From the NCBI GenBank assembly GCA_010015585.1, contig ML975174.1: a DNA stretch of 64,000 nt; one strand, given 5' to 3'. Both the position numbers and the translations under genes were made by a program. A model generated the notes under the pieces. The model did not search any database. It was given only the letters and a program-made list of their open reading frames with translations, and had not been told where the DNA came from. Positions 4,425-37,965 of this stretch are shown here, one piece after another. Each line of letters begins with the position of its first letter. The first letter of the stretch is position 1. The DNA is from Eremomyces bilateralis CBS 781.70. Taxonomy: Eukaryota.

Positions 4425-4934
4425 ACTGCCCCCGAAGTCCAACTGTACGCGTCCACGTCGCCGCGGGTGGAAACATTGATGGAGAAGAGTTCTCTATTGA
4501 TGGCTAAGTACAGTGGCGATGAGAGAGACGCACGCGTCGCGCGTGCAGGTCGCAGGTGTTGAGCGTGGTATCGCCATACCACCAACACCAGCACGACTGT
4601 GTCTACTGCCTCCGCTTAGACATGGTGTCCTTTCATCAAGGGAGGCCTCTTGAGGGATACAAAGGGATACGAAAACCATCCGATAGGGGTCTATCTAGCT
4701 CGCAGCTGGATCCGGAAGCCTGACTTATCATTAGGTGGATGAGGACGCGTCCTAGGCCTCTAACAGGACACCCTCAGGCTCGCCTACTCTGGGGTTACGC
4801 GTAGCGAGGGTTTGGAACAATCCTAATTCTAAAGAACTTGTTAAGGCTAACTTGTATAAATCTAGGCGAACTCTGTTAAGGCCGGAGGGCCTCTTCGCAA
4901 CGGGAGCGCTTGTTAAGGCCCCTCTATCGGAACC

Positions 4935-5618: not shown

Positions 5619-5623
5619 TAATG

Positions 5624-15626: not shown

Positions 15627-15804
15627 GATGGGCGAAATGAAGGAAGCGCAAGAGATTTTTCAGTCCAGTGAATGACCCATTTCTAAAAGAGTACAAGATT
15701 TGACTATATACCTGCACTCAACTCTCCACACTATGCTAAGGGAGGCATTACCCCGTGTTCAGCCACCCCCGCATGAAATTCCACAATCCGGGGTGGCCCA
15801 AAAT

Positions 15805-15821
15805 CGGGAAATCGAGGTCCG
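15805..15821. promoter_or_regulatory. Zn2Cys6 (Gal4-type) site CGG-N11-CCG near the MFS gene start
   Basis: CGGGAAATCGAGGTCCG. Confidence 0.6.
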
Positions 15822-16205
15822 AAAATTACGAAGTAGAGAATATTTTTAAAGACAGCTTTCTACGGCGAAGTAACTGTCATATCGTTGTTGGCTACACACT
15901 CCGAGGCATAGGATCCACTTCAAGGTCTAAATGTACATTTTCCCAGACTTGTTTACAACCAAAACCCACATCTTCGTCGCTAGTGGACCTTAGGCTCAGC
16001 CTCGGTATGGGAGATACGAGCTACTATCTTCACTAAGCTAATGAAATGACCAGCACAAAATATGCTTCGTCAAACTCTTCATGCAGATCTAAATGTAGAC
16101 TATCGGAGATACTTGATATCGGCATGGCAGGGCATAAAATCGGATTGCAACAATGCCCCGATAGTTGGAAAATTTGAGCTTAGGGAATTATCATTGTAGA
16201 TAAAT

Positions 16206-16467
16206 CGGGAGAGATCGTCCCGTCCTCTTCAAACTCCAGTACACTACCAACTACCACTCTAAAAAACAATGACTATCATGTCGGCGCTGAGCCATGGTTT
16301 GGGATTTGAACGGGAGGACTACTCCCATGGCGTATGACCGTTCGGAGGATGAGTCGCCGATAGCCCCTATTGTTCCGAGTGCAGCAATAGATGGCGGGGC
16401 GTTAGATGCCGAAATCAGTCTTACCTATACGAAGTGGAAAAAGTGGGTTCCGGAGCATAACACGCCG
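16206..16467. promoter_or_regulatory. Four CGG-N11-CCG sites in the divergent MFS/carrier promoter
   Basis: 16206 CGGGAGAGATCGTCCCG; 16343 CGGAGGATGAGTCGCCG; 16395 CGGGGCGTTAGATGCCG; 16451 CGGAGCATAACACGCCG. Confidence 0.7.
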
Positions 16468-16763
16468 AATGACACTAGCCGTGTCATGCATAGGTGTGGG
16501 CGCTAAACCTAGACTAGTAGAACGGCCTCAAACTTTAAATTTGAATCATAGGTCGACGGAGCATTTCTTTGCAAAGAAAATGAGAATAATATTGATACTA
16601 TGAATGTCTCAAACTGACACAACCTGCTGAGCGGAGCGCTTGACTCCAATCACATTTCATCAAAGGTAAATGGAGTATATTAAATCGAATCACTCGTCGA
16701 TATCATCTTTGAAAGTGACCTAAGTATATTCAACTGGGCCGTTATAATTCGAGGCCGACTACT

Positions 16764-17830
16764 ATGGATCAGTTAGTGCACGGCGCTGCTGCCGAGCATT
16801 GTAATACTATCCAGCTACAAGCTGAAGAGGTACCGCGGATTTACCAACGAGGCATACGGTTAGATATTGACACTATGAGCTAGACAAAACAGCAGAAAAA
16901 GGCTAAGACTTCTTCACCCGCTGTAGCCTTTGCGTCAGGTGCTATTGCAGGAGGTGTAGAATGCTTCGTCACAGTACGCCCTCGAGCAAGCAACTACAAC
17001 TTTAAGAAGTGCTGACCGCTACCTAGTATCCCTTCGAATTCACAAAGACAAGCGTCCAGCTACGTGGCGGCAATGTATCCAAGAATCCCTTCGTGGTCGC
17101 CCATCGCATCGTGCGAACGCAGGGCGTCAGCGCCTTATACACGGGATGTAATGCTCTCGTGACGGGCACCATGGCCAAGTGCGGCGTGCGCTTCTTCGTC
17201 TACGATGGCCTTAAAGAGCAGTTAGCATCATCGTACCTGAAATGTTCCAACTTGCTCCAAGGGGTCGTGGCGGGCATGGGCGCCGGCATTGCCGAAAGCG
17301 TCCTGGTGGTCACTCCCATCGAGCGCATCAAGACCGCACTTATCGACGATGCAAAATCCGGCAAAAAGCAGCTGGGTGGCGGCTTGCACGCCATGCAGGT
17401 CATTGTTCGGACGCGGGGCATCGCAGACTTGTACAAAGGCCTGATGCCAACCATGCTGAAGCAGGCAATGACATCGGGCGTACGGATGGGGAGCTACAAT
17501 ATACTGAAGGAGCTGGGTAGGAAGTTTAAGCTTAACGATGGTTCGGTGACGATATTCATGACTGGCGCACTTGCTGGCACTATTACGGTGTATGCGACTC
17601 AGCCGTTTGACTCGATCAAGACTCGGTCCCAGGCGCTGACATCTATGAGTATGAGAAGCGCAACGAGAAGTATCATCCTAGAATATGGCATGCGTGGTCT
17701 TTGGCAAGGTAGCACAATGCGGCTCGGGAGATTGCTGTTTAGCGGTGGTATTGTGTTCACAGTGTATGAGAAGTCAGTGCAGATCATTGAGTCGCGACTC
17801 CACTTAGAGGCGCAACACCAGATAAAATAG
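16764..17830 (+). CDS. Mitochondrial carrier, citrate/tricarboxylate transporter (CTP1-like), 3 exons
   Basis: Spliced start MDQLV...AFASGAIAGGVECFVT|YPFEFTKTSVQL. Three carrier signatures: PFEFTK, PIERIK and PFDSIK. KCGVRF, KQAMTSGVRM and RLGRLLFSGGIVFTVYE are typical of citrate carriers. Confidence 0.88.
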
Positions 17831-18177
17831 AATTGCAAAATTTTGGCCCTGCCTAGCCAGTGTTGCGAAGAATCAAGAAATCGCCGAGTTAGGGCCACTC
17901 CAGCTAGGTATATACCTGGGTAAAATAAATCTGGCTGGTGAGATTTCTCCTTCCTGCTAGTAACGGTGGAAATTAATTGCTTAACTGGGCCTAGCGCGCA
18001 ATTTCCTTCGGCTTCGCCTAGGGACAACTTCAATTATCAATGTTCAACAGTTCAATCTATTCCTTCTCTCACAGACCTCAAAATGTTGGAGACAAATCTC
18101 ACCAGCCAAATCCCAAAAACGGGTGGGAAAACCTCACCAGCCATTCTAGTATCCATGTGCCTAACCAATGTGTAATA

Positions 18178-20050
18178 AGTCGGCCGCCCCCCTTGTCGGC
18201 CACCTCATCAAGAATTCAATTGACAACGTACAGGTAGACAGATTTATCAATATGAACTCTCTACATACATTTTTGCCTAATTAAATTTGAAATTCATAAA
18301 GAAATGACTCGTAAGTAGCCTTCGAAAAAATTTCAGCCTGACAGCCTCTTCTTGAGCATTGAAGATCGGGTTTAGAGGCGCCTTGTTCGGCAGTCTTGCC
18401 CGCTCAGTCTCTTTGGCTGTCTCATCCATCTTCGCAACGATTTGCTCAATATTAGCAAATCTTTCGTTCTGATCTACAGGTATTCTCTTTCGCCTTTTCG
18501 TGTGTGCCCCACCCATATCTTCAATGGTTTTGTTGAGGCGTTGAACCTCAGCTCTAAGGGCGGCGATTTCGGCGTTCTTTTCCCCAAGTCCCTTTGCAAT
18601 CTTCCCTTTCCACCCCCGGAACCCCCTTTCCGTCAGTTCTTCGAATTTTTGGTCCGGAACGTCTTTCGGGCCTTTGGTAGTATGGAAAATAGGTATATCA
18701 ATTGGTTCAGGTGTAGTGGGACGTGCAATGGTGGTAGAAGAATGGTTGGTGTTTAACTGGGAGCTATGTAATACTTTATATTTATTGAAGGGGTACATTC
18801 CGGTGGCACGAAATCCTGCACGAATATTCTGTGCAGTCAAGCCTTCTACTCTTGCTTTACTATATATCAATAAAATTATGCTTCTTAATAGGGGTATTAT
18901 CGTCAAGGGAACTTAGGAGGGACAGTGCTTGTCGATACTTGGTCTTCAGAGGGGAGAAACATGCGACGTCAAGAGGCTGGAGTATATGTGAGCAATGAGA
19001 AGGGAGGAGAAGGAGGAAGACGCGGTTACCTTTACAGGTCTTCATGATCTCAATGGTAGCATGAGATCCGTGGCCATCGCATGCTAGTAAACGCCACTCA
19101 TCGTGTCCGTTACTGTCAGGAATGGTTTCAGGCCTCAGGGAGGAACTTCTTCTCCAGCCATTTAAGGCCAATCTCGTTAGAAGTCCACGCATTCTCTGAT
19201 GTCGTGAAGTGCAATCGGTCAGGTCCTTGATTGAAGAAGGGAACCACGTAGTCTGGAGGTTTTGGCATTTGAAGATGATAAGGGGAGAGACTTTTCGACC
19301 TTCCGCGGAAACTGCCTCGATAATGGAAACCCATTCGCGATCACCAGGGAATTTAACGTAGGTACGTTTGCGTTTTCCGTTCGTTGAGGCCCCTATAACT
19401 CTCCCATTCGTTCCTATACCAAGCATTATCCCGTGTTCATCGAAATTGCACCTATTCGCGGGCTTGGTCTTGTACTGGTCGCAGATCTTCTTGTATAGGT
19501 CCAGGAATTCCGAGATGACCTCTTTTGTTGCGCCATTTGCTCGAGGCGCTTCGAGAGCCGTTCTGACCATAGAGTTTACCTGCGGGTTACGACGAAGGAA
19601 GCCTTGAGTCCAATGTTGACCGCAAGGGGTCGTATCCCCATTTTCCCGGGCAATGCATTCTGCCATTTGGACCACTCTTGCGTGAGAAGGGGCCCGATTG
19701 GCGCGGTCTTCTTCGATAATCCATTCCGCAAGGTATCTCTCTTGAACAGGGGATAGATTCTGTGTAATCTGGGCGCTCTCTTTGCGAGTTGGACGGCCTG
19801 CGAGTCTACTCTGAAGTGTAGACCTTGGGATTTGATATAGCTCCGAAACCTTGCGCAAAGAGGGGATTTTCCGGGTCGGAAAATCATCTAGAGCACTTTG
19901 CAGAGCCTCTTCTGTATATTCAGGCATTTTGGCAAGAACAATAGTCCTTGCATTGATTGTTTCATTGATTCAAAACTATCTACAGATCTACGTACAACCC
20001 GATTTAGGGTGGCTGACAAGGGGGGTGGCCGACAAGGGGGTCTGCTGACT
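18178..20050 (-). mobile_element. Pogo/Fot1 DNA transposon, full length (~1.87 kb) with a frameshifted transposase
   Basis: Imperfect TIRs (AGTCGGCCGCCCCCCTTGTCGGCCACC at left; GGTGGCCGACAAGGGGGTCTGCTGACT at right) flanked by TA. Transposase runs 19927 to 18277 (NFDEHG, DGHGSH, SHILQPLDVACF), split over three frames. Confidence 0.93.
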
Positions 20051-20738
20051 TAATATGGGGGATGAAGATCTATTTTGGGATTTCGGGGCTGCTGCCAGGA
20101 ACAGTGGGGGGGGAGAGGCTGTGGTTTGTTGGATGTTGGTTGGTGTTGATTGGTCCAATTCTTCAAACATCCCATTTTCAACTTCTCGGCTTCTTCGACG
20201 GAAACACCAACTTCTCTTGACTTTTTAGTATCGAATCATCTTCCTATTTTGGATCAAGAGATGGATATGCCTGAATTGTTACCAACCCAGGAATAGAATT
20301 AAACCTTGAGCAGATCGAACACGGCCCCAATTTCTCGGATCATTCAACAGCCGAGATACAGGTTATGGCTGTACTTGCACTGCCTTTGTACGTTCTAGAC
20401 TTTAATTAAAGATTAAAGTTTAAGCTCGGAAAATAAGCATACTTTGGCCCCATGTGGACTCTTATAGAGTGGCGCTGTCATACTACCGCCTGCTTATTTC
20501 TATCTTAGAATTCAGTGTCGAACATAGCACAAGCGCGGAGACGGCCTTGTGCCTGACGATCCGCCTGGTATAGTGAGATTGGATGACATCTCAGACAAGA
20601 CAGTGAGCTATATAAGAGTGCTCTCTCTACGTCTAGATGGTTTGAATTCATTATCACTAAGTAGATCTACCAGATACAAGACATTCACCAGTCTTCTCTC
20701 ACTCATCTACTCTTACAACTCTATAATCAGTCAATAAT

Positions 20739-21533
20739 ATGTCTTTTACCATCATTAAACTCCTCATCGCTGCACTTGCAGCTAGTGCGACTGCCGCTCC
20801 GCAACCAATCGGTCTTCGACAACCCCGTTCTGCCTCCGGAATCTCCCCTATCCCTCCAGCGCCTTCAGTCGACTTCACCAAGCTCCTAACACAACCAACT
20901 CTTGTCGATCGCTTCAAGCAACTTGTCACTCGGGACGGCAAACTTCTTCCTGAGGACGAACTACGTAGCGTCGTTTCTTTCGATTTTAACACTCCTCTAC
21001 CTGCACCAGAAGGGAAGGGAGGTGCCGTCAACCTCGCCAATACCAAGAACTGGCCCATTCTCGCCGAATCGGGACTTGCTGTTACTGTTGGCTTCCTCGG
21101 TCCTTGTGGCATCAACACTCCTCATGTCCATCCACGAGCTACCGAACTTCTTACCGTCGCCAGTGGTAGTGAGGTAGACTTCGGTTATATCCTTGAGAAC
21201 GGACTTGTCGATCCCGGTGAAAAATCGGAAATCGCTGGCAAACTTGGTCCACTTCAAGCCACTTTGTTTCCTATGGGTAGCATCCACTTTGAAGTCAATC
21301 CAACCTGTGATGATGCTACTTTCATTTCTGCCCTCAACAATGACGATCCCGGTGTATCTCAGGTTGCACAGAACTTTTTCGGTTTGGATGGCGAGACAAT
21401 CGAGGCTGTTCTCGGTTTCCCGGAACAATTCGATGGAGACCGTATTGAAGAATTCCGCAGCAAGATTCCTGCCAATGTTGCCCGTGGCATTGAGCAATGT
21501 TTGGAGCACTGCAAGATTCCCAAGAGGAAGTAA
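20739..21533 (+). CDS. Secreted germin/spherulin-1-like cupin protein
   Basis: Signal peptide MSFTIIKLLIAALAASATA, germin box GINTPHVHPRATE and FPMGSIHFEVN. Intronless, 264 aa. Confidence 0.9.
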   Translation: MSFTIIKLLIAALAASATAAPQPIGLRQPRSASGISPIPPAPSVDFTKLLTQPTLVDRFKQLVTRDGKLLPEDELRSVVSFDFNTPLPAPEGKGGAVNLANTKNWPILAESGLAVTVGFLGPCGINTPHVHPRATELLTVASGSEVDFGYILENGLVDPGEKSEIAGKLGPLQATLFPMGSIHFEVNPTCDDATFISALNNDDPGVSQVAQNFFGLDGETIEAVLGFPEQFDGDRIEEFRSKIPANVARGIEQCLEHCKIPKRK

Positions 21534-22177
21534 TGCCACCGTGTGAGAAGATCTTGATTTTTGGAGCATCATGTCCCTATTAGCGAGCATCGTCCCGGCG
21601 TTCCAATTTCGATGGGTTTTTGTTTATTTACCGAGTCATTTACAACTGTATTTACTAGAGTCCGGAGTCTAAGCTCTCTATTAAAATATCTTTTCAATTT
21701 TAGAGAATTCCGTCCACTTTTCTCATTTCTGTCCTGTGTACAACATTACAAGTCAGATTCTATGTAACTACGTACATATGAACTGACCAATATGGTAGTT
21801 AGAGGAAACCCGACAGAATTGGTAGGTGGCCGAGGCACGCCAAGGCTTTAAACCCTCACATAATATATCCTGTCTGCTCTGCTCAGTACAACGACCCGCA
21901 GTGCCATCGTCTTCATTTCAACGACAGGCAGTTGATCAATGCTCAATATTACCACTTTCTATGTCAACGCCTCCATCTTCCACCTCGCACTCATTGTCGC
22001 GTAAATTCTGTACCAGGTCCACGAAGTGTGCTGGACTACACTATGACTATACCTTGGATCGTGGCCGGCCTTGCCAGGTACTTCCTCCTGAACTCGTTGG
22101 AACCACCTTGTCAAAATCATCGCTCAAGAAAGCATCACCTCAAGACTGAAACAGAGTCCGCTCTCTACTTGACGATC

Positions 22178-23206
22178 ATGGCCATTCTCAGAGGCCGCAA
22201 GTTTCCACGTGGGCCAGCATCTGTTCCCAACTATGGTGCCCAGAGTCACCCTCCCCCCCTCCGGATCACAACAGATGAAGATGGTACGGAGATCGTCGAG
22301 GAAATGCCGCTGGCATCCTCTAATGAACCTTCTCGGCCGTACGAGGACTTCAAATCCCACTTCCTTGGACACGTTTATCCATCGATTGACTCGCTCCGGA
22401 TCCGATGGCCCGTTTTTGGTGAACTGAGCGACATTCTAGTTGTTGACGACGCTACGGATCCTTTTGCCCCAACTAAGCCCTTCCAGCTCCCCGATAGCAG
22501 CCTACATCCGGTCGCAAACCCTCGTGTTTCAGATATTAGCTCCATCAAAGTTGGCATCGACTGCCTTGGCGAATTAAGTTCTTACACTTTCAGAGAATGT
22601 GAATGCGAAGATATTGAGAATGACGATGGAACTGTTCAGAAAGATTGCCATTGTGGGATATATTACCGCAAGCCTGATCCTGTTCTGGTTGTTGGAGATA
22701 ACGAGGGGAGCGCTATCGCGATGGAAAATCTCATCCTCACACTATGTCACAGAATATCTGTGTTTCTTGGCGTTTCCCCACGGCTTCATTCCGCATTCGA
22801 TTCTATACCCCTATTCTTTCCCTTTTTAGGGAAAAGATCACCATTGTAAACCATATAAAATAGCTGCAGGAACAGCCTGTTTTCGTAGGATCCGGCTTTT
22901 CAGGATCAAGTTGAATCTATCTACGCTCTTTTGGAATCTAACGGAGTTTTCCCACCGTGTCGCTGCATTAATCACCTGATTGAGCGAAACCGCTATTTAT
23001 CTCACACATTACACCCATATATAAATTCGTTCAAGGACGACATTCTCCGGGCAAAATCATATTATTCCCCCTCTCCGCTGCCACCGGATACGCAGTTTTT
23101 GCGACATCAGCCTTTCCCGGGCCTTTTGTATATTTTATCGAGGACTATGGGCCGGAGGATAACCAATTTATATGGGAAAAGAATGCTCATATGGCTGCTA
23201 ATTTGA
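22178..23206 (+). pseudogene. Fungal hypothetical protein gene disrupted by a solo-LTR insertion
   Basis: MAILRGRKF...ENLILTL continues in frame as HPYINSFKDDILRAK... once 22745-23011 is removed. Confidence 0.65.
22745..23006. mobile_element. Solo LTR with a near-perfect 5-bp TSD
   Basis: TG...CA termini (TGTCACA...TCTCACA), flanked by CACTA (22740-22744) and CATTA (23007-23011). Excision restores the reading frame. Confidence 0.72.
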
Positions 23207-23408
23207 GAAACACTTCTATGGCATCAAGGAGATAGGACACTGTGGTCCTAAATAAGGGACATAGATCAAGCAGCGTAATTCTGCATGGGAAGAACGGGGT
23301 GGGATTCATTTTTGTCTGTGTCATTGCTCACTCATTTTGTTAGGTATTCTAGTTAATAATAGTAAAAGAGACGACAGCAAGTTGACCGCTGTTTTTGGTG
23401 GCTCCCTC

Positions 23409-23645
23409 TGTCGCAAGATGCCCCTGTTGGTTTCTACTGCCCTCTACCCCTGGGCTAGGCCTAATTAGGACTCCTCAGTCTTCTCCTAGTTATGTATTTA
23501 AGTTATCTTCATCTGGCTTACTGGCTAGACCACCTTTTCTAGGCAATGGGAATCGTTAATACCAATTTGCGTTATGACTACAGTAACTGAGCTTCAGGCC
23601 TTCAGCAGCGATCGTGCTTAATCATCACCCCGGCGAAATGCGACA
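23409..23645. mobile_element. Probable solo LTR (237 bp)
   Basis: Perfect 7-bp inverted termini TGTCGCA...TGCGACA, with a partial second copy at 4307-4424. Flanks CCCTC/CGTGC do not form a clear TSD. Confidence 0.65.
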
Positions 23646-23936
23646 CGTGCAGTCGCGGACCAACGCCAAGATCTACGATATCAACAACCCCGCGCATCGG
23701 CTATCCGTACATGTACCGATGAAGCGCCCTCTTAGCGGGAGTCGTCAAGACTCCTGGTAACAAGGTTGCTAAGGCTCACAGAATTTTAGCAGTCTCTTTT
23801 GTATACCGTACAGTATGTCGGTGGCGGACTATGTTATCCCAGTACCTAGGTCGAAGACCGCAGCCCAAACTTTTTCATTCTGTATCTCCTTAAGTCAGAG
23901 TTCTATTCCATTTGGCAGACATAAGACGACGTTGTC

Positions 23937-26279
23937 ATGTCAGGCAAAGGCGACACTGCCTCGCATCAAAGCACCACTCGGAGTTGCGAATACTGTCGCA
24001 CCCGCAAGGTGCGATGTGATACGCAGAGGCCATCATGTGGATCATGTTTCCGCCAGAATCGCAAATGCGTCTATGTGTTTCAACCGCGAAAAGCAAGGTT
24101 GGATCTTCACTCATTTATCCAACTCTCTTGGTTTCTTCCTGACTTGTGCCGTAGACCCACGCTGGCGATGCTAGAGGAGCTACGGACGGAGAATGCAAGA
24201 TTGTGTGCCATGATCCAGAGAATGGGAGGGATGAGATCCCCTGATGCGGGTAGCAACGTCGCCGATGCTTTACAGGCGGATGACAGCCAATCACTAATCC
24301 AGCAGCAACAGCGACAGCAACAAGTGTCTCATCCCGCATCAGGTGAGCTCGAGGTAGCCAGCAGTGTCATTGGGGAAGTGCAACCATCTGCATCTCAGAA
24401 TCAAGCCGACTCTGGAGGAATATCTCATGAACTGTTCGACTCAACAGATCGCAGCAATGATGCGAGCATGCCCGGCGAAGCAAGGACCAACGAAGGTGGA
24501 CCAGCGACCGTGGAGTCAACGCCGGACGTGTCCCCATACCTATGGACAGACGAAAAAGGAAAGGTCAACGCTTTTGGGCCTTCATCGGCGCTCCAATCCC
24601 GACCGAACACCGCCCGCCAGGAGGATCGGGTAGTCTCGGTCCATATGCAAAACGCACTCCTAGCAAATGCCGTCATATCACGACAGAACGAGCACAAACT
24701 GAGAGAGCTGGTTTCGCTAGACGGCGTGCCGATCGACCTTGCAATCCACTTACTAGATCTCCACTGGAACCGGCAGCACCATACGTTTCTCTTGACGTAC
24801 AGACCGGCGATCATGCGGGATATACTACGCGGTGGCCGTTTCGCGTCCAAGTTGCTCATCAATGCCATCTTTGCCTGCGCAAGCAAGTTTTCACAGCGAG
24901 CGGCTGTCATGGACGATCCTCAAAATCCCAGCACTGCCGGAGGCCGCTTCTTCCGCCGATGCGACGAGCTGATGGAGGAGAAGCAGCTCCTGCTAACCCC
25001 AAGCATCCCAACCATAGCCGGCCTGCTTCTTTTGGGCTCCTCCTATATCGCCAAGGGGTCAACATCCAAGGGCTGGATGCTTACGGGATCAGCACTACGC
25101 ATGATATTCGACCTTGGCCTGCATCTGGACCACAAGATCACAGACGAAAATGCGGAAGAAGTTGAAATGTATCGACGAGTCTTTTGGGGCGCCTTCATCT
25201 GTGACAAACTGCAGAGCCTCTATCTGGGACGGCCGGTGGGCATTCGGCTCCGCGATGCATATGTTTCCCATGAGCTTAACGACCATCTAGAGGAGAACGA
25301 GCTCTGGGCCCCATATATTGACCCTTCAATTCCTGAAGACCGCCTGCGGTTGGGTTCCGCTCCGCAGGGCCTCATCTATTCAGTATCCTACTTTCAGCAA
25401 ATCTGCCTTCTCTTCAAAATCGTCGACCGGATTATCGACATCTTCTATGTCGTGGGAGCAACTCCAGCTGAGGCTCAGGCGAGTCTCAAGGGAATTGATA
25501 ACGCTCTCGAGAAGTGGGAGGCCGACCTCCCCGGATTTATCCGGCTCGATCCTATATCCGCCACTCTCGAAGGTGGTCGCATACCGGCGCCCAACATGCT
25601 GGCTCTACACATACTCTACCACGCTGTTATAATTCTCCTGCACCGGCCGCTGGTCGCTGAAGGGCACCTGAACTGGGCAACCACTGTACCTGCGACATCT
25701 TGGAAGCGGTGCTCTGTCGCCGCGCGAAACATCACCAGTCTTGCCATCGCGTACCAATCTCGGTATACGCTGCGCGCCGCCCCATACCTCATCGCCTACG
25801 GTCTTTACGTGGCCAGCACGATCCACGTACGCAACACTGCGGCCGCGCCGAACCCGACCGGCGATCACTCCGTCTTGCTGGCATGGAGTCTGCGCTGCCT
25901 ACGGGACCTTTCCGTTCCTAATCCCGGGGTATCGCATCTTACTTCCATCATCGAAAAGCTCATGGTCACCAAGGGTGTAGAAATAGCTGCTGATCCTACC
26001 AGTGGCCCAGAAGCTGCACCAAATGCTGCGAGTGAGCATATTGCCGGATTGCATTGCGAGTACGCATCGGCGGTTCGGTTTGATTCTGGCGTGCAGTCGA
26101 CGAGCTTATCCATAGGAGAAGCGGAGTTTGATTGGAGTAACTGGCATGAGTCGTTTGAAGATGATGTGCTGTTTGGGTTCATGGGCTGGCAATCATATCA
26201 GCTAGGCGATTCGGCCCCTCAACCCATGGGTGGCACGACTTCATGTTTGGACCCATTTGAGTCCCCAGTGATGCAATAA
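23937..26279 (+). CDS. Zn(II)2Cys6 transcription factor with fungal-specific middle homology domain
   Basis: CEYCRTRKVRCDTQRPSCGSCFRQNRKC; 57-nt in-frame intron 24098-24154 (GT..CTGAC..AG); GSALRMIFDLGLHLD and RRVFWGAFICDKLQSLYLGRP. Confidence 0.95.
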   Translation: MSGKGDTASHQSTTRSCEYCRTRKVRCDTQRPSCGSCFRQNRKCVYVFQPRKARLDLHSFIQLSWFLPDLCRRPTLAMLEELRTENARLCAMIQRMGGMRSPDAGSNVADALQADDSQSLIQQQQRQQQVSHPASGELEVASSVIGEVQPSASQNQADSGGISHELFDSTDRSNDASMPGEARTNEGGPATVESTPDVSPYLWTDEKGKVNAFGPSSALQSRPNTARQEDRVVSVHMQNALLANAVISRQNEHKLRELVSLDGVPIDLAIHLLDLHWNRQHHTFLLTYRPAIMRDILRGGRFASKLLINAIFACASKFSQRAAVMDDPQNPSTAGGRFFRRCDELMEEKQLLLTPSIPTIAGLLLLGSSYIAKGSTSKGWMLTGSALRMIFDLGLHLDHKITDENAEEVEMYRRVFWGAFICDKLQSLYLGRPVGIRLRDAYVSHELNDHLEENELWAPYIDPSIPEDRLRLGSAPQGLIYSVSYFQQICLLFKIVDRIIDIFYVVGATPAEAQASLKGIDNALEKWEADLPGFIRLDPISATLEGGRIPAPNMLALHILYHAVIILLHRPLVAEGHLNWATTVPATSWKRCSVAARNITSLAIAYQSRYTLRAAPYLIAYGLYVASTIHVRNTAAAPNPTGDHSVLLAWSLRCLRDLSVPNPGVSHLTSIIEKLMVTKGVEIAADPTSGPEAAPNAASEHIAGLHCEYASAVRFDSGVQSTSLSIGEAEFDWSNWHESFEDDVLFGFMGWQSYQLGDSAPQPMGGTTSCLDPFESPVMQ

Positions 26280-26633
26280 ATGCAGGTTCGTCCATGGTTC
26301 TAAAGCACCGTATATAACGTTTGCCTTGTGATGCACCGAAGGAACTCAAGGTGAAAGCCAAGTAGTTGAAGTCACCTCCAGAAGTTTTACCATATAGAAC
26401 AGGAAGACTAGTCAGGCCGCATGAACAAAGAACCAGCCGTTAGCTGTAAGCATATTTTTATCCAACATTATGCAGAATGAGTAATTGGTGAGATCTAGGC
26501 GGTCACGTATTTCCAACATTCAAGCATGCTTGGATGACAAATTGGAAAGATTGGGAATAGGGGTGGAACCATGTATTATCGCAGAACGGCGCTGTACTCT
26601 ATTAAATATACTTCTCAGTGATAGTAAAGTTAA

Positions 26634-28306
26634 TCAAAGCCCGACAGTGATACTCTTGACATTCGTATAATCCTCCACACCAAACTTGGATCCCTCCCTG
26701 CCAATACCGCTCTCCTTGATACCACCAAAGGGCTGCTCGCAGGCGCTGATGAGCCCAACGCGAACACCCACCATACCAGTATCCAAAGCCTCGGCGACTC
26801 TCCATAGCCTGGAAATGTTTTCCGTGTAAAAGTATGCAGCAAGCCCGCTCTGGTACGTGTTGGCCAACTTGAGAACCTCCTCCTCGGTGTCAAACGGCAC
26901 CAGTGGAGCCACCGGTCCAAACGTCTCCTCACTACCGAACTTCATCGTGTCCGGTTTCGCGTCGAGCAGGATCGTTGGGACGTAAAAATTCGGCCCGAGG
27001 TCTTCTTTAATGAAGCCCCCGTTGAACAACTTTGCCCCGTTGGAAACGGCATCCTCGACGTGCTGCTGGACTTTGGTGACGCCCTTGGGCGAGTACAGAG
27101 GGCCGAAGTTGACTTTGGAGTCCCAAACCGAGCCGTAGATAAACGTCGTTTCTAGCGAGGCTTTCAGCTTTTGGGCGAAGTTTTCAATAATGGAACGATG
27201 GACGAAAATGCGGTTCGCGCATACACATGTCTGGCCGGACGATCGAAACTTGGATGCGATCAAACCTAAATGGTTACCATATGGCGTGAAGAAGGTATGG
27301 ACGACATTTACCGTCGACTGCCTTTTGAATATCCGCATCCTCAAAGACGATAAAGGGCGCGTTGCCACCAAGTTCCATGCTCGTCTTCTTCAATGTCTTG
27401 GCACATTCGGCATTCAAGAATTTGCCTACCGCTGTGGAACCGGTGAAGCTCAGATGGCGAACAAAGATGCTCTCGCACATCTCTGCTCCGATTGATGCCG
27501 CTCCAGAGATATCGCCAGTCACCACGTTCAGAGTACCAGGCGGATATCCGTCGCCCACTCGCTCAAAGAGCTTTGCAATGGCAATCGCGCACATTGGCGT
27601 CTCCGGTGCTGGCTTCAGCACAACGGTACAACCCGCGGCAATCGCCGCGCCCACCTTGCGTAGAATCATAGCAACAGGTGAGTTCCAAGGTGTAATGGCT
27701 GCTACAACGCCTTGCGGCTCGCGAGTGGTAAAGATGCGGTTGTCACCCTTCGCCGCAGGGATGGTCTCACCATAAAGGCGCTCGACTTCGCCCTGGAACC
27801 ATTCAAGAAAGCTGATTCCATAGTCGACGGTGACGAGCGATTCCGCGATGGGTTTGCCTAGCTCCAGGGTACAAATGGCTGCCAGATCATCGCGGTTAGC
27901 ACGGATGATGTCAGTCCATTTTCTAAGGAGCTCTTTGCGTTTGCGAGCAGTGAACTTCTTATATGTCTGGAAGGCGGATTGTGCAGCGTCAATTGCACCT
28001 CGAACTTCTTCACGAGAAAGGTTCGCGACCTGGAAGACGGGTTGATTGTCCACGGGGTCTATGTACCGAATACTTTAGTCAGCATACGAGTGCAAGGGGT
28101 GAACCTAATTACCGAATACGGAACAAGTGCTGCTATTCTTGGCGGATACCCATTGGCCTCCAACGTAGGCTCGTGCGTCCAACAGTGAGGGATCTTTGAA
28201 CTACAATGCTGTCAGATAAGGTAGTTCTCTTACAACGAGTAGTGATGGTGTTTACCTGGTAAGGGACAGGCTTGGAAAGGATTTCGATGCCTGAAACTGC
28301 TGCCAT
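26634..28306 (-). CDS. Succinate-semialdehyde dehydrogenase-like aldehyde dehydrogenase (cluster copy), multi-exon
   Basis: ITPWNSP, KPAPETP, FTGSTAVG, MELGGNAP, catalytic FRSSGQTCVCANR, EETFGP and PFGGIKESGIGREGSK. Start MAAVSG at 28306. Confidence 0.92.
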
Positions 28307-28557
28307 GTTTGAAGATATTAGACTTGGTGATGGGTAGATTGATAGTAATGAAACACGATGAGATTTTTCAGCAAACTCGAATCTTACCGGGTCGGGCTAA
28401 CTAATGACTCTACAGTAACAGCAGCACTGCAGAGTGATTAAAAAGGGCGACCAGCAAAAATAGCCGGCACGCCTGAACGGAGCCACTGCGATGCAGTCGT
28501 ATTGAGCAAGAGTGCGAGGCGAGGCTAGCGGCCAGCGGGCCAGCGTGGAGCCGGGGG

Positions 28558-28574
28558 CGGAGGATGATCCTCCG
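28558..28574. promoter_or_regulatory. Palindromic CGG-N11-CCG site in the divergent ALDH/lactonase promoter
   Basis: CGGAGGATGATCCTCCG is a perfect palindrome around the central base and close to the Gal4 consensus CGGAGGACTGTCCTCCG. Confidence 0.72.
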
Positions 28575-28919
28575 CAAGTGGATAGCCTAGGGAAACTGTT
28601 CCGACCAGTTCTAGTCATCCCTGGATCATCACGAACAACATCAGATATGTCCGACTTGATCCAAGCCCGACCAACTCTCCCAACCATCGGAGACGTCATA
28701 ACCCATTGCTCGTACTTCAGTACTCGGAGTGAAGGATAGTCTTTGCCGAATTTTGATCGTCATCTACGTCATGGTTCATATGGAATCAAGGCCGAGAGAA
28801 CTATAAATCATGCCATCTACATACATATTGTAGTTCCAGAAAGAAGCATAAAAAAGCTTTTTATTACAACAGACAAACTCCTCTCTATGTTTCGATACAT
28901 CCAATTGATCATCGCAATC

Positions 28920-29825
28920 ATGGTTGCACCTCTTTCTAGCGTCCTGGCCGTGCCAGGAACCGCCGTGAATTTACATCGTCTCGAAGCAGGTTTTCTTTAT
29001 CTCCCAATGGACCTATTCGTTCAGGGGTCCGCTCCAGATGACATCCGCCGGGTCCCTTCGATGTCCTGGTTGATTGAGCACCAGGTCACAAAACGGAAAG
29101 TGGTTTTCGATTTGGGTATCAGGAGGGATATTGAAAACTATCCACCCACAGTCTACGAAAGACTGCAGACTGTCGTCAAGACGGAGGTGCCTCAGGATGT
29201 CTTTGAAAGCCTCAATAAACTTCACATCGACCCGCAGAACGATGTTGATACTGTTATCATTTCACATCTGCATTACGATCACGTTGGAGACCCATCGAAA
29301 TTTGGGCCAAACGTCACTTTTCTGCTTGGACCAGGCGCAGAAGAATTGATTCTCGGCCCAAAAACTTATCCAACCGACCCAGAATCTAATTACGATTCGA
29401 ACCTGATACCCCAAGGGAACAAGCTTTCCTTCCTACCGGTGCCCTCAACCGACACCAGCGGGTTCTGGGAGCCGTTAGGGCCATTTCCGCAAACGCACGA
29501 CTTCTTCGGCGACAAGTCGCTCTTCATCATTAACGCGCCAGGTCACTGCATCGGTCACCTTAATGCTCTCGTCAGAGTGGATAATCAGAAGTGGCTCTAT
29601 TTGGCTGCCGATACTACTCACAATGCCAGAATTCTGCATGGCACGGCACAGACTGCAATATACACAGACGAAGCCACGGGTCTCCGCTGCAAGTCCGCTC
29701 ACAGTGACTTAGAGGCAGCCGAAGCACACTTGCAGCGGGTTCAGGAGTTTGCGCGGGAAACGGGAGTGGAGATTATCCTGGCCCATGATGCGGATTGGTA
29801 TGAAGCAAACTTGAAAAATTATTGA
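28920..29825 (+). CDS. Metallo-beta-lactamase-fold hydrolase (AHL-lactonase/gamma-lactamase-like)
   Basis: VVFDLG, zinc motif SHLHYDHVGD, APGHCIGH, LAADTTH and LAHD. Likely start MVAPLSS; intronless. Confidence 0.9.
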   Translation: MVAPLSSVLAVPGTAVNLHRLEAGFLYLPMDLFVQGSAPDDIRRVPSMSWLIEHQVTKRKVVFDLGIRRDIENYPPTVYERLQTVVKTEVPQDVFESLNKLHIDPQNDVDTVIISHLHYDHVGDPSKFGPNVTFLLGPGAEELILGPKTYPTDPESNYDSNLIPQGNKLSFLPVPSTDTSGFWEPLGPFPQTHDFFGDKSLFIINAPGHCIGHLNALVRVDNQKWLYLAADTTHNARILHGTAQTAIYTDEATGLRCKSAHSDLEAAEAHLQRVQEFARETGVEIILAHDADWYEANLKNY

Positions 29826-30240
29826 TTGTACTCGGTCAAATGAAGGACTTTGGATGAACAATGGACAACAGAGGAATCCCGACTTATGATGCGCGTTGGT
29901 ATGACGCGAAGTTGAACAGACAATAGTTGAACGCGCTATGGATATAGGAAATTGAAACTTCTTTACACTTTAGCTAGGGCAATGATCTGTTCATGCATCT
30001 ATACCCTTCTCAGTGTGTTAATCCGAGCGCCAGACTTCGGCCAGTTGCCCAGCTCCCTGGTGCTCGTGTTTTACGTACTCGATGAGCTGCCCACGCTTAC
30101 ATGTCACACTGATGGTCGTTATATTGCGCTTATCGGCACACTGCATGTTTCCGGGCCTTGCTCCACAGTTCAAAGGATCATGACCGGCCGGTCATATCAG
30201 CCGCGGGCACTATTATCTCCCAGGCCCGATGTGGATCTTT

Positions 30241-30257
30241 CGGAGACAAAATGTCCG
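30241..30257. promoter_or_regulatory. CGG-N11-CCG site upstream of the SDR
   Basis: CGGAGACAAAATGTCCG. Confidence 0.65.
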
Positions 30258-30523
30258 CTCCGCAGCCAGTATCAGCAACCACCACTTTCATGCTCATGTT
30301 TGCTTTGACTCTTTTATCCCTTTGCTCCGTACTAGAGTAGTAGTCGGATCCAAGTGGAGCCGTCCAGTCCTTGTCTCATCGCGACGACTTCCATAAATGC
30401 AGCGCAGCATCCAAAGATACTGCAGACATGGCATTCCAATCACGACCCTCCCCAATGACTTGAATCAAACTGATAGTTTCAAATCCAATCGAAGACTCCA
30501 GAAACTTGGTCATCAGCTCTAGA

Positions 30524-31352
30524 ATGGGCCGCTTGCAAGGAAAGGTTGCCCTCATTACTGGTGCAGGCTCTGGCTTTGGCGAAGCCATTGCCAAGTTCTA
30601 CTCCAGGGAGGGCGCTCATGTCCTCATTGCGGACATTGCCACCGAGAACGGCGAGCGGGTCACAAATGGAATCAACTCGGACCGCAGCGGTGAGCAAGGC
30701 GAGGCCATATTCGTGCAGTTCGACTGCACTAAGAGCGAGGCATGGAAGGAGGGCCTCAAGATTGCTCAAGACAAGTTCGGCAAGCTCGATATCGTCGTCA
30801 ATAACGCCGGCACGACGTACAACAAGAAGCCTAGCACCGAGGTAACGGAGGCGGAGTTTGATAAGCTGGTCATGGTCAACACGAAGAGCATATATCACAG
30901 CGTCGTCACTGTCATGCCGTATTTTGCGGAGCGGAAGCAGGGTGTTTTCCTTAATACCTCCTCTGTCGCTGGCATGAAAGTGCGACCGGGACAAGTTTTC
31001 TACGGAGGCACTAAGGGCTTCCTCAACACAGTAAGCAACAATTTCTTCCAGTCCTCCAACTCCGCTAACCATGAACCACTAGGTCACTCAAGGATTGGCC
31101 GCCGAATGGGGTCCGCACGGCGTTCGCGTCAACTCCATTTGCCCGCTACGAAGCCCCACTGGATTGCTGGAGAAGTTCTCAGGGGTTCCCGACACGGCAG
31201 AGGAGCGCGAGAGGTTCGCGCAGACCGTTCCCTTGAGACGGATGGGCGATGCCGATAGCATTGCGCATGCGGCTGTCTATCTTGCGAGCGACGAGGCCAA
31301 CTTCGTGTCCGGTGTCAACTTTCCAGTTGACGGAGGAAGATTGGCAGCTTAA
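30524..31352 (+). CDS. Classical short-chain dehydrogenase/reductase (likely NAD-dependent), 2 exons
   Basis: TGAGSGFG, IADI (acidic, NAD preference), NNAG, YGGTK (YxxxK), VRVNSICP and FPVDGG. Intron ~31031-31082. Confidence 0.93.
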
Positions 31353-31838
31353 GTCAATCCAATTGATTCATGGATTACTGTAAATATGTTGAATCCCGCT
31401 TGTTGTAAAGATATCATGAGTATGACTAGTTATATGTGTGTGCCTGTGGCTTAGTTAATATCATGCATCCACGGTTAGCGCCTTTTATCGAAGCGGATGT
31501 ATACAGGATGAGTGATAACGCCTAGGCCTACAGTCATTCTGGAAGGAGCGTGCACTATAGTATTGTGAAAGGAGACCTTGAAGTGTTAGACTTGACAAAT
31601 GCAATCTTCATAACGTGGTGCTGATTTATTTCGGACCGCGGCTACACGTTGTCCATAGATACTTGATTGATCTAGCCAGAAGTTGCCGCTCACACCAGGT
31701 ATAAATGGAGCCATAATATGACTTAATATTGCAAACACATGACTAGACGTTGATTCATTGTTTAGCTCTATTGTTGAATCCGCTTCAGATACTCTATTGA
31801 CTGCCTCCGTGATACAACCACATCTCGTAAGCAACATA

Positions 31839-33449
31839 TTACAACCTTGCTGGAAGAAAAGTACTCTGGCTGGCCCTTTCTGCTGCTGCTTTTCCTGCCC
31901 GGCGTCCAAACACAGCTCCAGAGGTGAGACCACTGCCTCCTGGGTAGTTGTCGTAGAATAGACCTCCCAGCATTTCTCCAGCGCAGTACAGGCCTGGGAC
32001 AACAGTGTTGGTTGCCGCTGAAATGACGCCAGCCGTTTCTGGGTCGACCGCAAGACCGCCAAATGTGAACGTGACACCGCAAGTGACCTTGACCGCTAGA
32101 AACGGACCCTGAGTGAGCGACAAAGCCCAGTTGGACTTGGCAAGCGGAAGGCGTTGCTTGCTGGACTGTGTCGACAGACCGTCTCTGATAGGTGGATCCC
32201 ACTTGAGGTCGGGATTTTCAGCCCTGAAGGCTTCGACAGCATTATTATAGGTCCGAATGGTTTCGAGAAACTTGTCCGGGTTCCTGAGGCCTTTTTCGGC
32301 GCACTTGCGCGCCAACTCCTCAATCGTCTGGCCCACAATCCTCTCCACACGCTCGTCACGGTACTCCTCATCACGGAGCCACGGGGTGGTTTGCGCGTCC
32401 CAAACCTGAAAGGCGGCATTATCGGGTTGTGCAAGAATAGCTTTTCCGAAAATGGCGTAAGTATAGTTGCGGAGATCGACGCCTTCATCGACAAAGCGCT
32501 CGCCGTGAGTGTTAAGCATCAAGCCAAGTGGATATCCTGATTTGGTGAATTCATTTGAGATTTGACGATCTCCTGCATGAGCTGGAGCGTTGGCATCCCA
32601 TGCGACAGAGTGGCAGCCAGACCAGTTGCCGACCTGCTTCGCGTGGGCATCGCGCATGGCCAATTCCAGGACTGCGCCGGTATTGTACGGCGTGCCACGC
32701 ACTTTGGCAATGTCCCAGTTGGGACCCAGGTACTGCGCCCTCATCCTCGGGTTGGCTTCGAAACCTCCAGCGGCTAAAATGACGGACCCGGTGCTGATCT
32801 CCCGCTCCAGGCCATTCGACGCCTGTACTACGACAAACCTGACAGCACCGGTTTTGTGGTCGAGGACGAGACGCTTGGCTGGGGTGGAGAAGAGGACCTT
32901 AATGCCGAGTGCACGGGCGGCCCTGAGATGATCTTGAATGAGGCCTTTCCCGCCGTCCTGTGTCTTGAGCGACATGCCGCCCCAGAACTTGAATCTACCG
33001 TCGACTTCGTATGCTTGACGGTTGAACGAGAGCTGGAATCGGACACCATTCTTGGCTAGCCACTTGACTGCGTCGTTGGACTCGTTGATAAGAAGATTGG
33101 CGAGTTTTGGATCTGAGCGACCGTTGCAGATTCGATCAATGTCGGCATTGAAGTCGGCCGTCGTATAAGGTTGCATGTCAATCTTTTTCGCTGTGGCCTC
33201 GTCGACATTGTTTACAATTGGAAGTAGGTCTTGCAAGCCATGGTAGACAGTTCTGAAAGCTCCCGCGGTAAAGTATGAGTTGCCTCCAGCCCAGTTCTCA
33301 GGACACGCGTCGATGAGTAGGACACGCTTGGCTCCAGACTCTGCTGCCGATATGGCACTGCAGAATCCAGCGTTGCCGCCTCCAATGACCAGAACATCAA
33401 CATCTGGCGATGCAGGTAGATCGAGACCGTCGTCTGCTTGTGGTGTCAT
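31839..33449 (-). CDS. tcuA: FAD-dependent tricarballylate dehydrogenase TcuA/CobZ-like flavoprotein (fumarate-reductase flavoprotein superfamily), with a PTS1-like C-terminal ARL
   Basis: VLVIGGGNAG, GGNSYFTAGAFR, LAAGGFEANPRMRAQYLGPNWDIAKVRGTPYNTG, GNWSGCHS, YPLGLMLN..GERFVDEG and GGLFYDNYPGGSGLTSGAVFGRRAG. Intronless, 536 aa. Confidence 0.85.
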   Translation of the reverse strand: MTPQADDGLDLPASPDVDVLVIGGGNAGFCSAISAAESGAKRVLLIDACPENWAGGNSYFTAGAFRTVYHGLQDLLPIVNNVDEATAKKIDMQPYTTADFNADIDRICNGRSDPKLANLLINESNDAVKWLAKNGVRFQLSFNRQAYEVDGRFKFWGGMSLKTQDGGKGLIQDHLRAARALGIKVLFSTPAKRLVLDHKTGAVRFVVVQASNGLEREISTGSVILAAGGFEANPRMRAQYLGPNWDIAKVRGTPYNTGAVLELAMRDAHAKQVGNWSGCHSVAWDANAPAHAGDRQISNEFTKSGYPLGLMLNTHGERFVDEGVDLRNYTYAIFGKAILAQPDNAAFQVWDAQTTPWLRDEEYRDERVERIVGQTIEELARKCAEKGLRNPDKFLETIRTYNNAVEAFRAENPDLKWDPPIRDGLSTQSSKQRLPLAKSNWALSLTQGPFLAVKVTCGVTFTFGGLAVDPETAGVISAATNTVVPGLYCAGEMLGGLFYDNYPGGSGLTSGAVFGRRAGKAAAERASQSTFLPARL

Positions 33450-33663
33450 GAGGAATGTTTGGAGATTCGGAGTTGGTATGAATGGATGGTAAGATTATTG
33501 TGACTGACCCTATACAGTTTGGATTAAGTGGTAATGTCTTCCACAGCGGATGGCTTACGCTTCTTTCACTTTCTCTTTTTATCCAGTCGCGGATCTTCCT
33601 CTTGGTGGAGAGCTGATATCGCGACGCGACCCAAGAGCTACTCAGTAGGACCAGAGCCATACT

Positions 33664-33889
33664 CGGGCTCTGAAGCCCCGTGGGCTTTCGTGCAGCATGA
33701 TGCCACAACGGAAGGTGACCACCCGGGCAGACTCATTTCGTCCGACCTTATGGAGCAAAATCCAAAGACTACCGTATTTGGCCATTGGGGTGCGGAACAG
33801 GGGAGATCATACTGGATCTCATTCGTTGATCGCCGATAAGATTTTTGCCAGTATCCAAACTCAAGACTGCGACGGAGGGAGACCGTCCG
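33664..33889. promoter_or_regulatory. Two CGG-N11-CCG sites upstream of the tcuA-like gene
   Basis: 33664 CGGGCTCTGAAGCCCCG; 33873 CGGAGGGAGACCGTCCG. Confidence 0.65.
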
Positions 33890-35146
33890 ACCTGGCGCCA
33901 CAAGTGGGAGTGGACTGCTGCCGATGGCTTTTGGTCAACAGGAACCCTGCGTCATTTCCGAAGTGCAGTGCCAGGGATACCTGGGTCCATGTGCCGCCAG
34001 GAAATGGCGGCAAACCCCTTCAAAAAAAAAGAGGTGGATGTCTCAGGAGAGTAATGGAAAACGCGTTACTTAGGCACGTTAGGTAGTTAGTTAAAAGTTA
34101 GGAGTAATTAAGGCAAGTCGAGATCCTTGACCGATATAGTCATGTGATATATGGATAATGCCCCTCCTCTCTCCTGGATCTTCCCAGCTTAATTGGAGTC
34201 ACCTACTCTAATTACCCAAACTTTGCGCAGCGCTCCTACGACCATATCTTGACTTACACTGTGACGTCCTTTGGGTTGTTTGGTCTTGTCTTCCTATCTT
34301 TCCAGTTGTACTACCGAAACTCGTATCACAATCTAGGTCCTCAGGTTTTCGGCATTGCCATCTCTAAACGACTTGGCCTCAATGGCTCGATCCAAGCCTG
34401 CTCCAATGTAAGATTTTGATTAACGACCAATAAGAAGTGGTTACAGTGAGGTGCATTCAATATAACATCTACACCCACACCATTTTGTATTCTTGTATGA
34501 ACCGCTAGACTTCTAGCGGATATGCGATCAGTATCACTGTATCAGAGTATAGCTAAGTACTCTAACGTCTCCAGCGGTGCCGACGTTGGAGAAGTTGGTA
34601 ACTGTGCAGCTTACCTCCAGGCATACATGAATCGAAGCTTAATTTATCCGGGTGTGGGGTGTCCGAACGTCATCCCTTCATCTACAACTCTTCTAGATGG
34701 GAACTTGTGAGTCGTGCACTGAAGTCCTGCATCAAGGGGGTTGAACCATTGAATGCTACCACCACGAATGGCATTGCGGCTCGCACTAGGAAATTCCATC
34801 GCTGGGTATAGCCGCATTCCAAATTGTTGTGGGAGATTCATAAACCATTCAGCAGGCGGTAAATTACTTTGTGAGGATAAAACGACTTCATTCTGTGTTG
34901 TCTGGGCCGCTTAGTGTTCGGTATGCCGACAGCCAGGGTAGCAAGTACGGATATACAAATACGAGAAACTATATAACATTTGTATTAAACATCGAAAACC
35001 AAGGTCAGTAGAGTATTTCTATGAGTGCGTCCTAATCTAAGCAGATTTGTATGGGATATAAATAATGGCAGCATACCGGTAATCTCGAAGCAAGTTTATC
35101 CCATTGTTTCTACCACAGTACGATAATTTGAGGACACCTGTTGAAG

Positions 35147-35619: not shown

Positions 35620-35923
35620 AGCAGCAGATCGATATGGATGTATGGAGTGAACCGAATATATTCTTGACTGAGCCGAAATCGTTCCGCTTGTGGATCTCTA
35701 GTTGTGTTGAGGGTAGGCTTTGAAACGCCTATGTAGCAATCAAAGTTGACTCTTGTCTGAATGATCTGAATGACTCAAAATAAAAGGAGTCCATGTATCT
35801 ACTGCGCTTGAATTTTGAGAAGCCGATGCTTGGTAACCATACTTAATATTAGATAGTAGGAGTGAAGATGGCAGGAGTGGATTCTGGAGATGGCGGGAAA
35901 TATCACTATGTCATACCCAGATA

Positions 35924-37735: not shown

Positions 37736-37965
37736 TACCCTAGACAATCTGATGGCGCCATACCTGCTTTGGTGAAGCGCTCCGCTAGAAGACCAGTAAA
37801 AACTAGCCGATATTCAAACGTGGAGAGGGCTGAGATGGACTAAAAAGTGTCCGAAATTCGGAAGATCCAGGCCTGAAACGATGTTGCGATCGCGTTGTAT
37901 CTTCCATAGGACGGAATAAAAGTCCTCTCGCCACCAGCTGGGTATCGTCCTTCACTCAACTCAAA

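Follow-up and report, generated by a model that had tools for sequence, protein, structure and literature searches.

In a 64,000-nucleotide stretch of contig ML975174.1 (assembly GCA_010015585.1) from the filamentous ascomycete Eremomyces bilateralis CBS 781.70, hereafter the window, exact copies of the inverted repeat CGG-N11-CCG are crowded into four promoter regions that flank six genes of a putative catabolic cluster. The excess of this motif is local to the cluster promoters and is specific to the 11-bp spacer. The cluster also encodes a Zn2Cys6 transcription factor (TF) with a Gal4-like DNA-binding region and, judged from sequence, the CGG-N11-CCG sites are probably the binding sites of this in-cluster factor and mark the genes that it co-regulates. 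The regulator and its proposed targets, with families assigned by Pfam and gene models by reading of the sequence, are as follows:

13913..15626, minus strand: transporter gene of the major facilitator superfamily (MFS), metabolite/H+ symporter-like; proposed target
16764..17830, plus strand: mitochondrial carrier gene, tricarboxylate-transport-protein-like, with a predicted start codon; proposed target
23937..26279, plus strand: Zn2Cys6 TF gene (Zn_clus and Fungal_trans), interrupted at 24098-24154 by a 57-nt intron that keeps the frame
26634..28306, minus strand: aldehyde dehydrogenase (ALDH) gene, succinate-semialdehyde dehydrogenase (SSADH)-like, three exons; proposed target
28887..29825, plus strand: metallo-beta-lactamase-fold (MBL), lactonase-like gene; proposed target
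30524..31352, plus strand: short-chain dehydrogenase (SDR) gene, one intron; proposed target
31839..33449, minus strand: TcuA-family FAD flavoprotein gene (P0002); proposed target

The original prediction had listed nine CGG-N11-CCG sites for this cluster. All nine are present, each at its exact position, but the count was incomplete: there are 11, the additional two being at 33709 and 34649. In the list below no strand is assigned to a site, PWM stands for position weight matrix, and 'central T-N-A' denotes the inner signature CGG-N4-T-N-A-N4-CCG:

15805..15821: 179 bp upstream of the MFS ATG (15626, minus strand)
16206..16222: in the divergent MFS/carrier promoter; weak, without central T-N-A, PWM score background-like
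16343..16359: CGGAGGATGAGTCGCCG, central T-N-A; MFS/carrier promoter
16395..16411: central T-N-A; MFS/carrier promoter
16451..16467: central T-N-A; about 300 bp before the probable ATG of the carrier gene (16764)
28558..28574: perfect 17-bp palindrome, CGGAGGAT-G-ATCCTCCG, top PWM score
30241..30257: 267 bp upstream of the SDR ATG (30524)
33664..33680: central T-N-A; 215 bp before the start codon of the flavoprotein gene (33449, minus strand)
33709..33725: central T-N-A; 260 bp upstream of the flavoprotein ATG; absent from the original prediction
33873..33889: CGGAGGGAGACCGTCCG; 424 bp before the start codon of the flavoprotein gene
34649..34665: distal, 1.2 kb upstream of the flavoprotein gene; weak; absent from the original prediction

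Taken together, the four promoter regions (15628-16764, 28075-28886, 29823-30523 and 33450-34700; 3.7-3.9 kb in all) hold these 11 sites against the 0.50 expected from dinucleotide shuffles, and none of 5000 shuffles reached 11, their maximum being 4; the earlier statement, nine sites seen against fewer than one expected, is confirmed and strengthened. The density of sites in these promoters is 3.0 per kb, as compared with 0.19-0.25 per kb in the window's other DNA outside open reading frames (ORFs). When the inverted arrangement was scanned over all spacers from N0 to N20, N11 gave 11 matches in the four promoters and each other spacer gave 0-2; everted and direct arrangements of CGG gave 0-6, with no enrichment. 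An enumeration of 34,867 trinucleotide dyads (spacers 0-20) placed CGG-N11-CCG first, with p = 1.7e-10 (about 6e-6 after Bonferroni correction), and the dyads ranked next are frame-shifted versions of the same motif. Outside the four promoters the window contains 13 further N11 sites, nine of them within ORFs of at least 120 aa and four in other non-ORF DNA, where N11 is at the background of the other spacers (0-6). We also noted a CGG-N11-CCG without central T-N-A at 50541-50557, about 270 bp before the gene of a third aldehyde dehydrogenase (Pfam Aldedh; probable start near 50.8 kb by eye, ORF to 52127); as N11 shows no excess beyond the cluster, this site is compatible with chance.

The sites are positioned as promoter elements might be: the nearest one to each of the six target ATGs lies 179-313 bp away, and every site is within 1.2 kb. 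Five are found in the MFS/carrier promoter (four of these in 262 bp), one each in the ALDH/MBL and SDR promoters, and three plus one doubtful site upstream of the flavoprotein gene. The palindrome at 28558 stands in the promoter that the divergent ALDH and MBL genes share, with the ALDH ATG (28306, minus strand) 252 bp away on one side and the first MBL ATG (28887) 313 bp away on the other, and it lies approximately 100 bp upstream of the point at which a contig of run X3 that covers MBL begins.

Another feature of the cluster sites is their inner signature. A T occupies half-site position 8 (CGG-N4-T) in 15 of the 22 half-sites of the cluster and in 1 of the 26 others in the window (Fisher p = 2e-6), and position 4 is a purine in 19/22 cluster half-sites as against 13/26 elsewhere in the window. 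The complete CGG-N4-T-N-A-N4-CCG signature is a property of cluster sites; it does not occur in the 13 remaining sites of the window. The preferred full site would read approximately CGGRNNNT-N-ANNNYCCG, with the 28558 palindrome as its likely optimum.

The candidate reader of these sites is encoded between the carrier and ALDH genes. Its spliced product, of 761 aa, is identical to a database protein (P0123, a hypothetical protein) and includes the zinc cluster CX2CX6CX5-12CX2CX6-9C (Pfam Zn_clus, E = 2.5e-7). That pattern is present in 34 of the 35 relatives that we examined, and the arrangement after the zinc cluster is alike in most of the sequences listed; P0127, P0161 and P0213 have an insertion at this point, and P0204 and P0241 are shorter there. 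The TF matches 17 PDB sequences at E <= 1, the strongest matches being those to Gal4 (1d66, E = 1.1e-5; also 3coq and 7uik) and to Lac9 (1cld). In phmmer alignments, residues 12-69 of the TF match residues 6-63 of Gal4 without a gap through the zinc cluster, the linker and the start of the coiled coil, and residues 13-63 match residues 8-58 of Lac9, again without a gap; Hap1 and Ppr1 match over the zinc cluster only, and Put3 gives E of about 0.8-0.95. Gal4 and Lac9 are the classical binders of CGG-N11-CCG and, in this family, it is the linker and dimerization element that set the spacing. The likeness of the TF to Gal4 and Lac9 therefore fits the 11-bp spacer, short of proof of binding. A homodimer structure prediction for two copies of TF residues 1-100 scored 0.10, as against a mark of 0.32, which weighs neither for nor against dimerization. 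We also observed that one relative, P0222 (a 969-aa Fusarium nematophilum gene model), combines Zn_clus, Fungal_trans and Mito_carr in a single protein; probably neighbouring TF and carrier genes were here annotated as one, in which case it would show the same TF-carrier neighbourhood in Fusarium.

The cluster has counterparts in other fungi. A 90-kb contig (run X4) of a related organism carries pieces of the MFS, carrier, TF, ALDH, MBL, SDR and flavoprotein genes in the window's order; this contig was aligned on exons only (approximately 80-85% identical), and at 80% likeness the four promoters, the cupin region and the transposon lie outside its coverage. The genes that are collinear on this contig are the site-flanked genes plus the site-less regulator gene. 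We also used equal contig size as an indirect sign that two genes share a contig. By this measure, TF and flavoprotein homologues coincide six times (contig sizes 36244, 29161, 38454, 27336, 12449 and 59148), MBL and TF homologues six times (7963, 11895, 17748, 6985, 12449 and 12565), and MBL and flavoprotein homologues three times. Furthermore, the locus tags of the TF and flavoprotein homologues are 2 apart in Venustampulla, and those of the MBL and TF homologues are 7 apart in Aspergillus nanangensis. Taken on these contigs, gene linkage is conserved across species, as in a fungal metabolic cluster with a pathway-specific regulator.

The motif recurs along with the genes. When metagenome contigs were scanned with an alignment of the flavoprotein, 80 loci were obtained, of which 13 look fungal and four carry a second cluster gene; these partly syntenic loci are L007, L010, L013 and L006. 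Four of their promoters were inspected:

L007: interval of 421 bp that separates the flavoprotein gene from a TF homologue (38% identical) in divergent orientation; two N11 sites
L013: 417 bp upstream of the SDR orthologue (79% identical); two N11 sites
L006: ALDH promoter; one N11 site
L006: flavoprotein promoter; no N11 site

The promoters of these three loci together contain five N11 sites against 0.48 expected, and none of 5000 shuffles had at least five; their spacer profile again singles out N11, with five matches, all other spacers giving 0-2.

We propose that the CGG-N11-CCG sites are upstream activating sequences (UASs), probably read by a homodimer of the cluster TF (23937-26279), the DNA-binding architecture of which would be like that of Gal4 and Lac9: each zinc cluster would contact one CGG, and the Gal4-length linker and coiled coil would fix the 11-bp spacing. 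TF binding, its dimer mode, activation and the substrate of the pathway are matters that we infer from sequence. Since these 11 motif copies stand only in the promoters of a cluster that encodes a Gal4-like regulator, they are most likely its on-switch. The idea in the original prediction that the motif marks cluster genes, even though transposons and unrelated genes are interspersed among them, is supported by the spacer specificity, the dyad rank and the inner signature, and also by the Gal4-like regulator, the synteny on the X4 contig and the recurrence in other fungi. The interspersed and following features are:

18172-20054: pogo/Tc5-type transposon with inverted ends
20739-21530: secreted germin-like cupin
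21803-22846: ORF without a family
35922-37737: second pogo/Tc5-type transposon, followed by MTAP and then by a second SSADH

As the original prediction had noted, no exact site was found by the window scan upstream of the cupin, the TF itself, MTAP or the second SSADH; sites at 21200, 25840, 39464 and 40549 all fall inside coding ORFs. Relaxing the search did not alter this: a one-mismatch scan (333 matches against 296 expected) lacked the specificity to add any site before the TF or cupin gene, and a PWM scan gave no convincing extra site upstream of either gene. Both ALDHs, the cluster's and the one beyond MTAP, are SSADH-like. The two transposons have DDE_1 and HTH_Tnp_Tc5 domains and terminal inverted repeats of 32 and 88 nt; the one at 18172-20054 divides the carrier gene from the other cluster genes, and that at 35922-37737 lies 2.4 kb past the flavoprotein gene, with approximately 2.4 kb beyond that gene being devoid of any ORF of at least 150 aa. 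Contigs of runs X1 and X3 join 18171 to 20055, omitting the 1883-nt transposon and having 5 other letters in between; the short side of this junction is 29 letters only and its depth is far above that of the neighbouring DNA, and it probably reflects a similar sequence at another place and not an allele that lacks the transposon.

Several observations weigh against the assignment of the sites to the cluster TF as its co-regulatory code. The TF gene itself is without an exact upstream N11 site. Directly upstream of it, at about 22745-23645, the X1 contigs have a depth 23-37 times that of the neighbouring baseline (3860-6124 versus 164) and many loose ends, which looks like a high-copy repeat inserted approximately 290 bp before the TF ATG; the lack of a site in the TF promoter could be because of this repeat. 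The sites at 16206 and 34649 score like background, even though both were included in the training of the PWM; they are without the features of the inner signature and may be chance matches, because about 0.5 chance sites are expected in the four promoters. The full central T-N-A occurs in only 6 of the 11 cluster sites, and its T is weak in the metagenome sites (4/10 half-sites). The four promoter regions were chosen after the sites had been seen, with the remaining 60 kb of the window and the shuffles as background, and the frequency of N11 in unrelated promoters is gauged from only 16-21 kb of non-ORF DNA, with its four sites. In other fungi, the flavoprotein promoter of L006 has no site, and none occurs in up to 1 kb of upstream DNA in any of the five flavoprotein orthologues (L001-L005) that have no TF next to them; it follows that the motif goes with the cluster and not with the gene. 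The SDR promoters of the window and L013 gave no meaningful alignment, and the motif is therefore retained without positional conservation. The site-free orthologues L001-L005, the SDR promoters that do not align and the weak T of the metagenome sites all run counter to a simple conservation of the motif.

It could also be that these are genuine Zn2Cys6 dimer sites that are read by some other factor, such as a Gal4/CLR-2-type orthologue, with the cluster TF having a different specificity or serving as a co-regulator. There are many Zn2Cys6 factors in a fungal genome, and another one in this genome with Gal4-like spacing could bind; this, too, counts against our preferred assignment, as does the missing site in the TF's own promoter. 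The motif is common to Gal4 and Lac9. It is also reported for Neurospora CLR-2 (PMC4620465), and therefore the motif alone does not identify its reader. We nevertheless regard this alternative, the main rival, as unlikely: the cluster TF has the Gal4-length linker, and Gal4 and Lac9 are its best matches; the TF, flavoprotein and MBL genes remain linked across many fungi; in L007 two N11 sites occupy the 421-bp spacer that separates the TF homologue from the flavoprotein gene; and within the window the preference for central T-N-A is specific to the cluster sites.

An origin of the sites in chance or composition, for example from CpG-rich promoter DNA, with no regulatory meaning, draws on the post hoc choice of promoter regions, on the modest excess in the window as a whole (24 N11 sites against 14.5 +/- 3.2 in dinucleotide shuffles, 24 being reached in 1 of 100), on the roughly 0.5 of the 11 sites that chance would supply, and on the two of the 11 that are background-like. 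We give it very little credence, in that no shuffle of the promoters came near to 11 (0/5000, maximum 4), the 11-bp spacer alone is enriched among 21 spacers and three orientations, CGG-N11-CCG is at the top of 34,867 dyads, and the spacer-specific excess recurs independently in other fungi. Even less credible is the idea that the sites are copies of a repeat or mobile sequence (a miniature inverted-repeat transposable element, a transposon end or a segmental duplication) that were scattered into promoters. The region does include both pogo/Tc5-type transposons and the high-copy repeat near 22745-23645, and the first 10 bases of the 16343 and 28558 sites are identical; on the other hand, a search for repeats in 9000-42000 found three direct families and two inverted pairs, none of which overlaps a site, the flanks of the sites are mutually unrelated, and the inverted repeats of the transposons are without the motif. 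Chance and repeat origins are essentially excluded. The reading with the best support is that the in-cluster Gal4-like factor is the probable reader of the sites.

Comparison with known systems helps to place this proposed regulon. Gal4 with its UASg (Saccharomyces cerevisiae) and Lac9 (Kluyveromyces lactis) share with it the inverted CGG triplets and the 11-bp gap, as well as a Zn2Cys6 cluster that is followed by a linker of the same length and a coiled coil. UASg also has several sites in a divergent promoter, as is the case here for four sites in 262 bp, and the grouping of sites in the MFS/carrier promoter resembles the GAL1-GAL10 UAS. The best site, CGGAGGATGATCCTCCG, differs at three central bases only from what we take to be the Gal4 consensus 17-mer. 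Unlike these yeast systems, the targets are not galactose genes, the regulator is encoded within the cluster, the central preference of the sites is for T-N-A, and outside of its DNA-binding domain the TF is a Fungal_trans-domain protein with relatives that are often labelled NirA-like. CLR-2, the cellulase regulator of Neurospora crassa, is likewise a Zn2Cys6 factor of a filamentous ascomycete with a CGGN11CCG motif; the ChIP-seq motif is reported in about 60% of 114 bound regions and matches that of Gal4p (PMC4620465). CLR-2 governs a dispersed regulon of plant cell-wall enzymes, in contrast to the compact six-gene catabolic cluster with its own regulator that we describe here.

The content of the cluster recalls two bacterial systems. 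The tcuRABC genes for use of tricarballylate in Salmonella also pair a TcuA-family flavoprotein with a metabolite/H+ symporter-like MFS protein; the present cluster differs in being eukaryotic, in having a Zn2Cys6 regulator instead of the LysR-type TcuR, and in the addition of a mitochondrial carrier, and no TcuB partner was seen in the cluster. Our flavoprotein passes the cut-off of the NCBIfam TcuA equivalog NF006130 (502.4 bits; cut-off 369) and does not pass that of the older model TIGR02485 (246 bits; cut-off 372.6); it is approximately 45% identical to its bacterial matches in the metagenome scan. TcuA activity, as a 2006 title by Lewis and Escalante-Semerena reportedly has it, takes tricarballylate to cis-aconitate. 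The second system, attKLM for use of gamma-butyrolactone in Agrobacterium, has the logic of a lactonase with a dehydrogenase and an SSADH, and the cluster similarly combines the lactonase-like MBL with an SDR and an SSADH-like ALDH. The best NCBIfam rows for MBL are AttM and 4-pyridoxolactonase, both under the cut-off, and the carrier resembles tricarboxylate transport proteins (Atlas feature score 0.96).

From these assignments we infer a lactone/hydroxy-acid catabolic route, which the sites would co-induce as a module. Uptake would be by the MFS protein and opening of the lactone by the MBL lactonase-like protein; the SDR and then the SSADH-like ALDH would oxidise an alcohol and then an aldehyde (two steps to a polycarboxylate); the TcuA-like flavoprotein would dehydrogenate the saturated polycarboxylate in an FAD-dependent reaction; and the tricarboxylate-type carrier would exchange the product with mitochondria. 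That the substrate is tricarballylate or a related lactone is a guess.

Some observations on individual gene models follow. Contigs of run X3, which we only guess to be RNA, cover the TF, ALDH, MBL and flavoprotein genes; they join across the ALDH intron at 27264-27309 and across an intron in the 5' untranslated region of the flavoprotein gene (33504-33558, GT..AG, minus strand), and they therefore support the gene models. They are uninformative on regulation, and the genes cannot be ranked by contig depth. A contig of 4365 nt from X3 spans 24153-28058 through the TF gene and the convergent ALDH gene, so that the 3' ends of these genes appear to overlap or abut in that assembly. The MBL gene has possible in-frame starts at 28887, 28920 and 29007, and the Atlas record begins at the third of these; the longer forms have a hydrophobic N-terminal segment, possibly a signal peptide, and X3 contig coverage starts at 28674.

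Elsewhere in the window, a 434-aa ORF with no Pfam family (12092-13393) contains a 108-nt tandem duplication (12614-12829; copies 87% identical). The ORF at 10934-11818 has no Pfam hit, and by eye its translation suggests a putative transposase. Unrelated genes encode a HET-domain protein (729-2894), an ataxin-10-domain protein (43697-44845), an ammonium transporter (47594-48931) and the mitochondrial ribosomal protein Mrp51 (63179-64000).

Pathway-specific zinc-cluster regulators with palindromic CGG sites are a well-known class to which this regulon belongs, and the current view of Zn2Cys6 regulation is not overturned. A full-text literature search, supplements aside, found no paper on fungal TcuA-type flavoproteins or on such a cluster (the search also covering AN6133). 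We put forward, as a tentative possibility, that this is the regulon of an undescribed eukaryotic pathway, conserved among Pezizomycotina, in which the TcuA-type flavoprotein, the lactonase, the SDR and the SSADH-like dehydrogenase break down tricarballylate or a lactone or polycarboxylate related to it, and which passes its product to mitochondria through a dedicated carrier, under a factor of Gal4 architecture with its own CGG-N4-TNA-N4-CCG code. The model is precise and cheaply testable: it puts forward a single candidate regulator, a single optimal palindrome of 17 bp and six predicted targets. If true, the code could serve to follow the regulon into other fungi, the motif content would tell genuine members of the cluster apart from passenger genes and from transposons that were inserted, and the regulon would help in identifying what induces fungal TcuA-type flavoproteins and what they act on; the cluster TF would then join CLR-2 as a second factor of filamentous fungi with Gal4 spacing.

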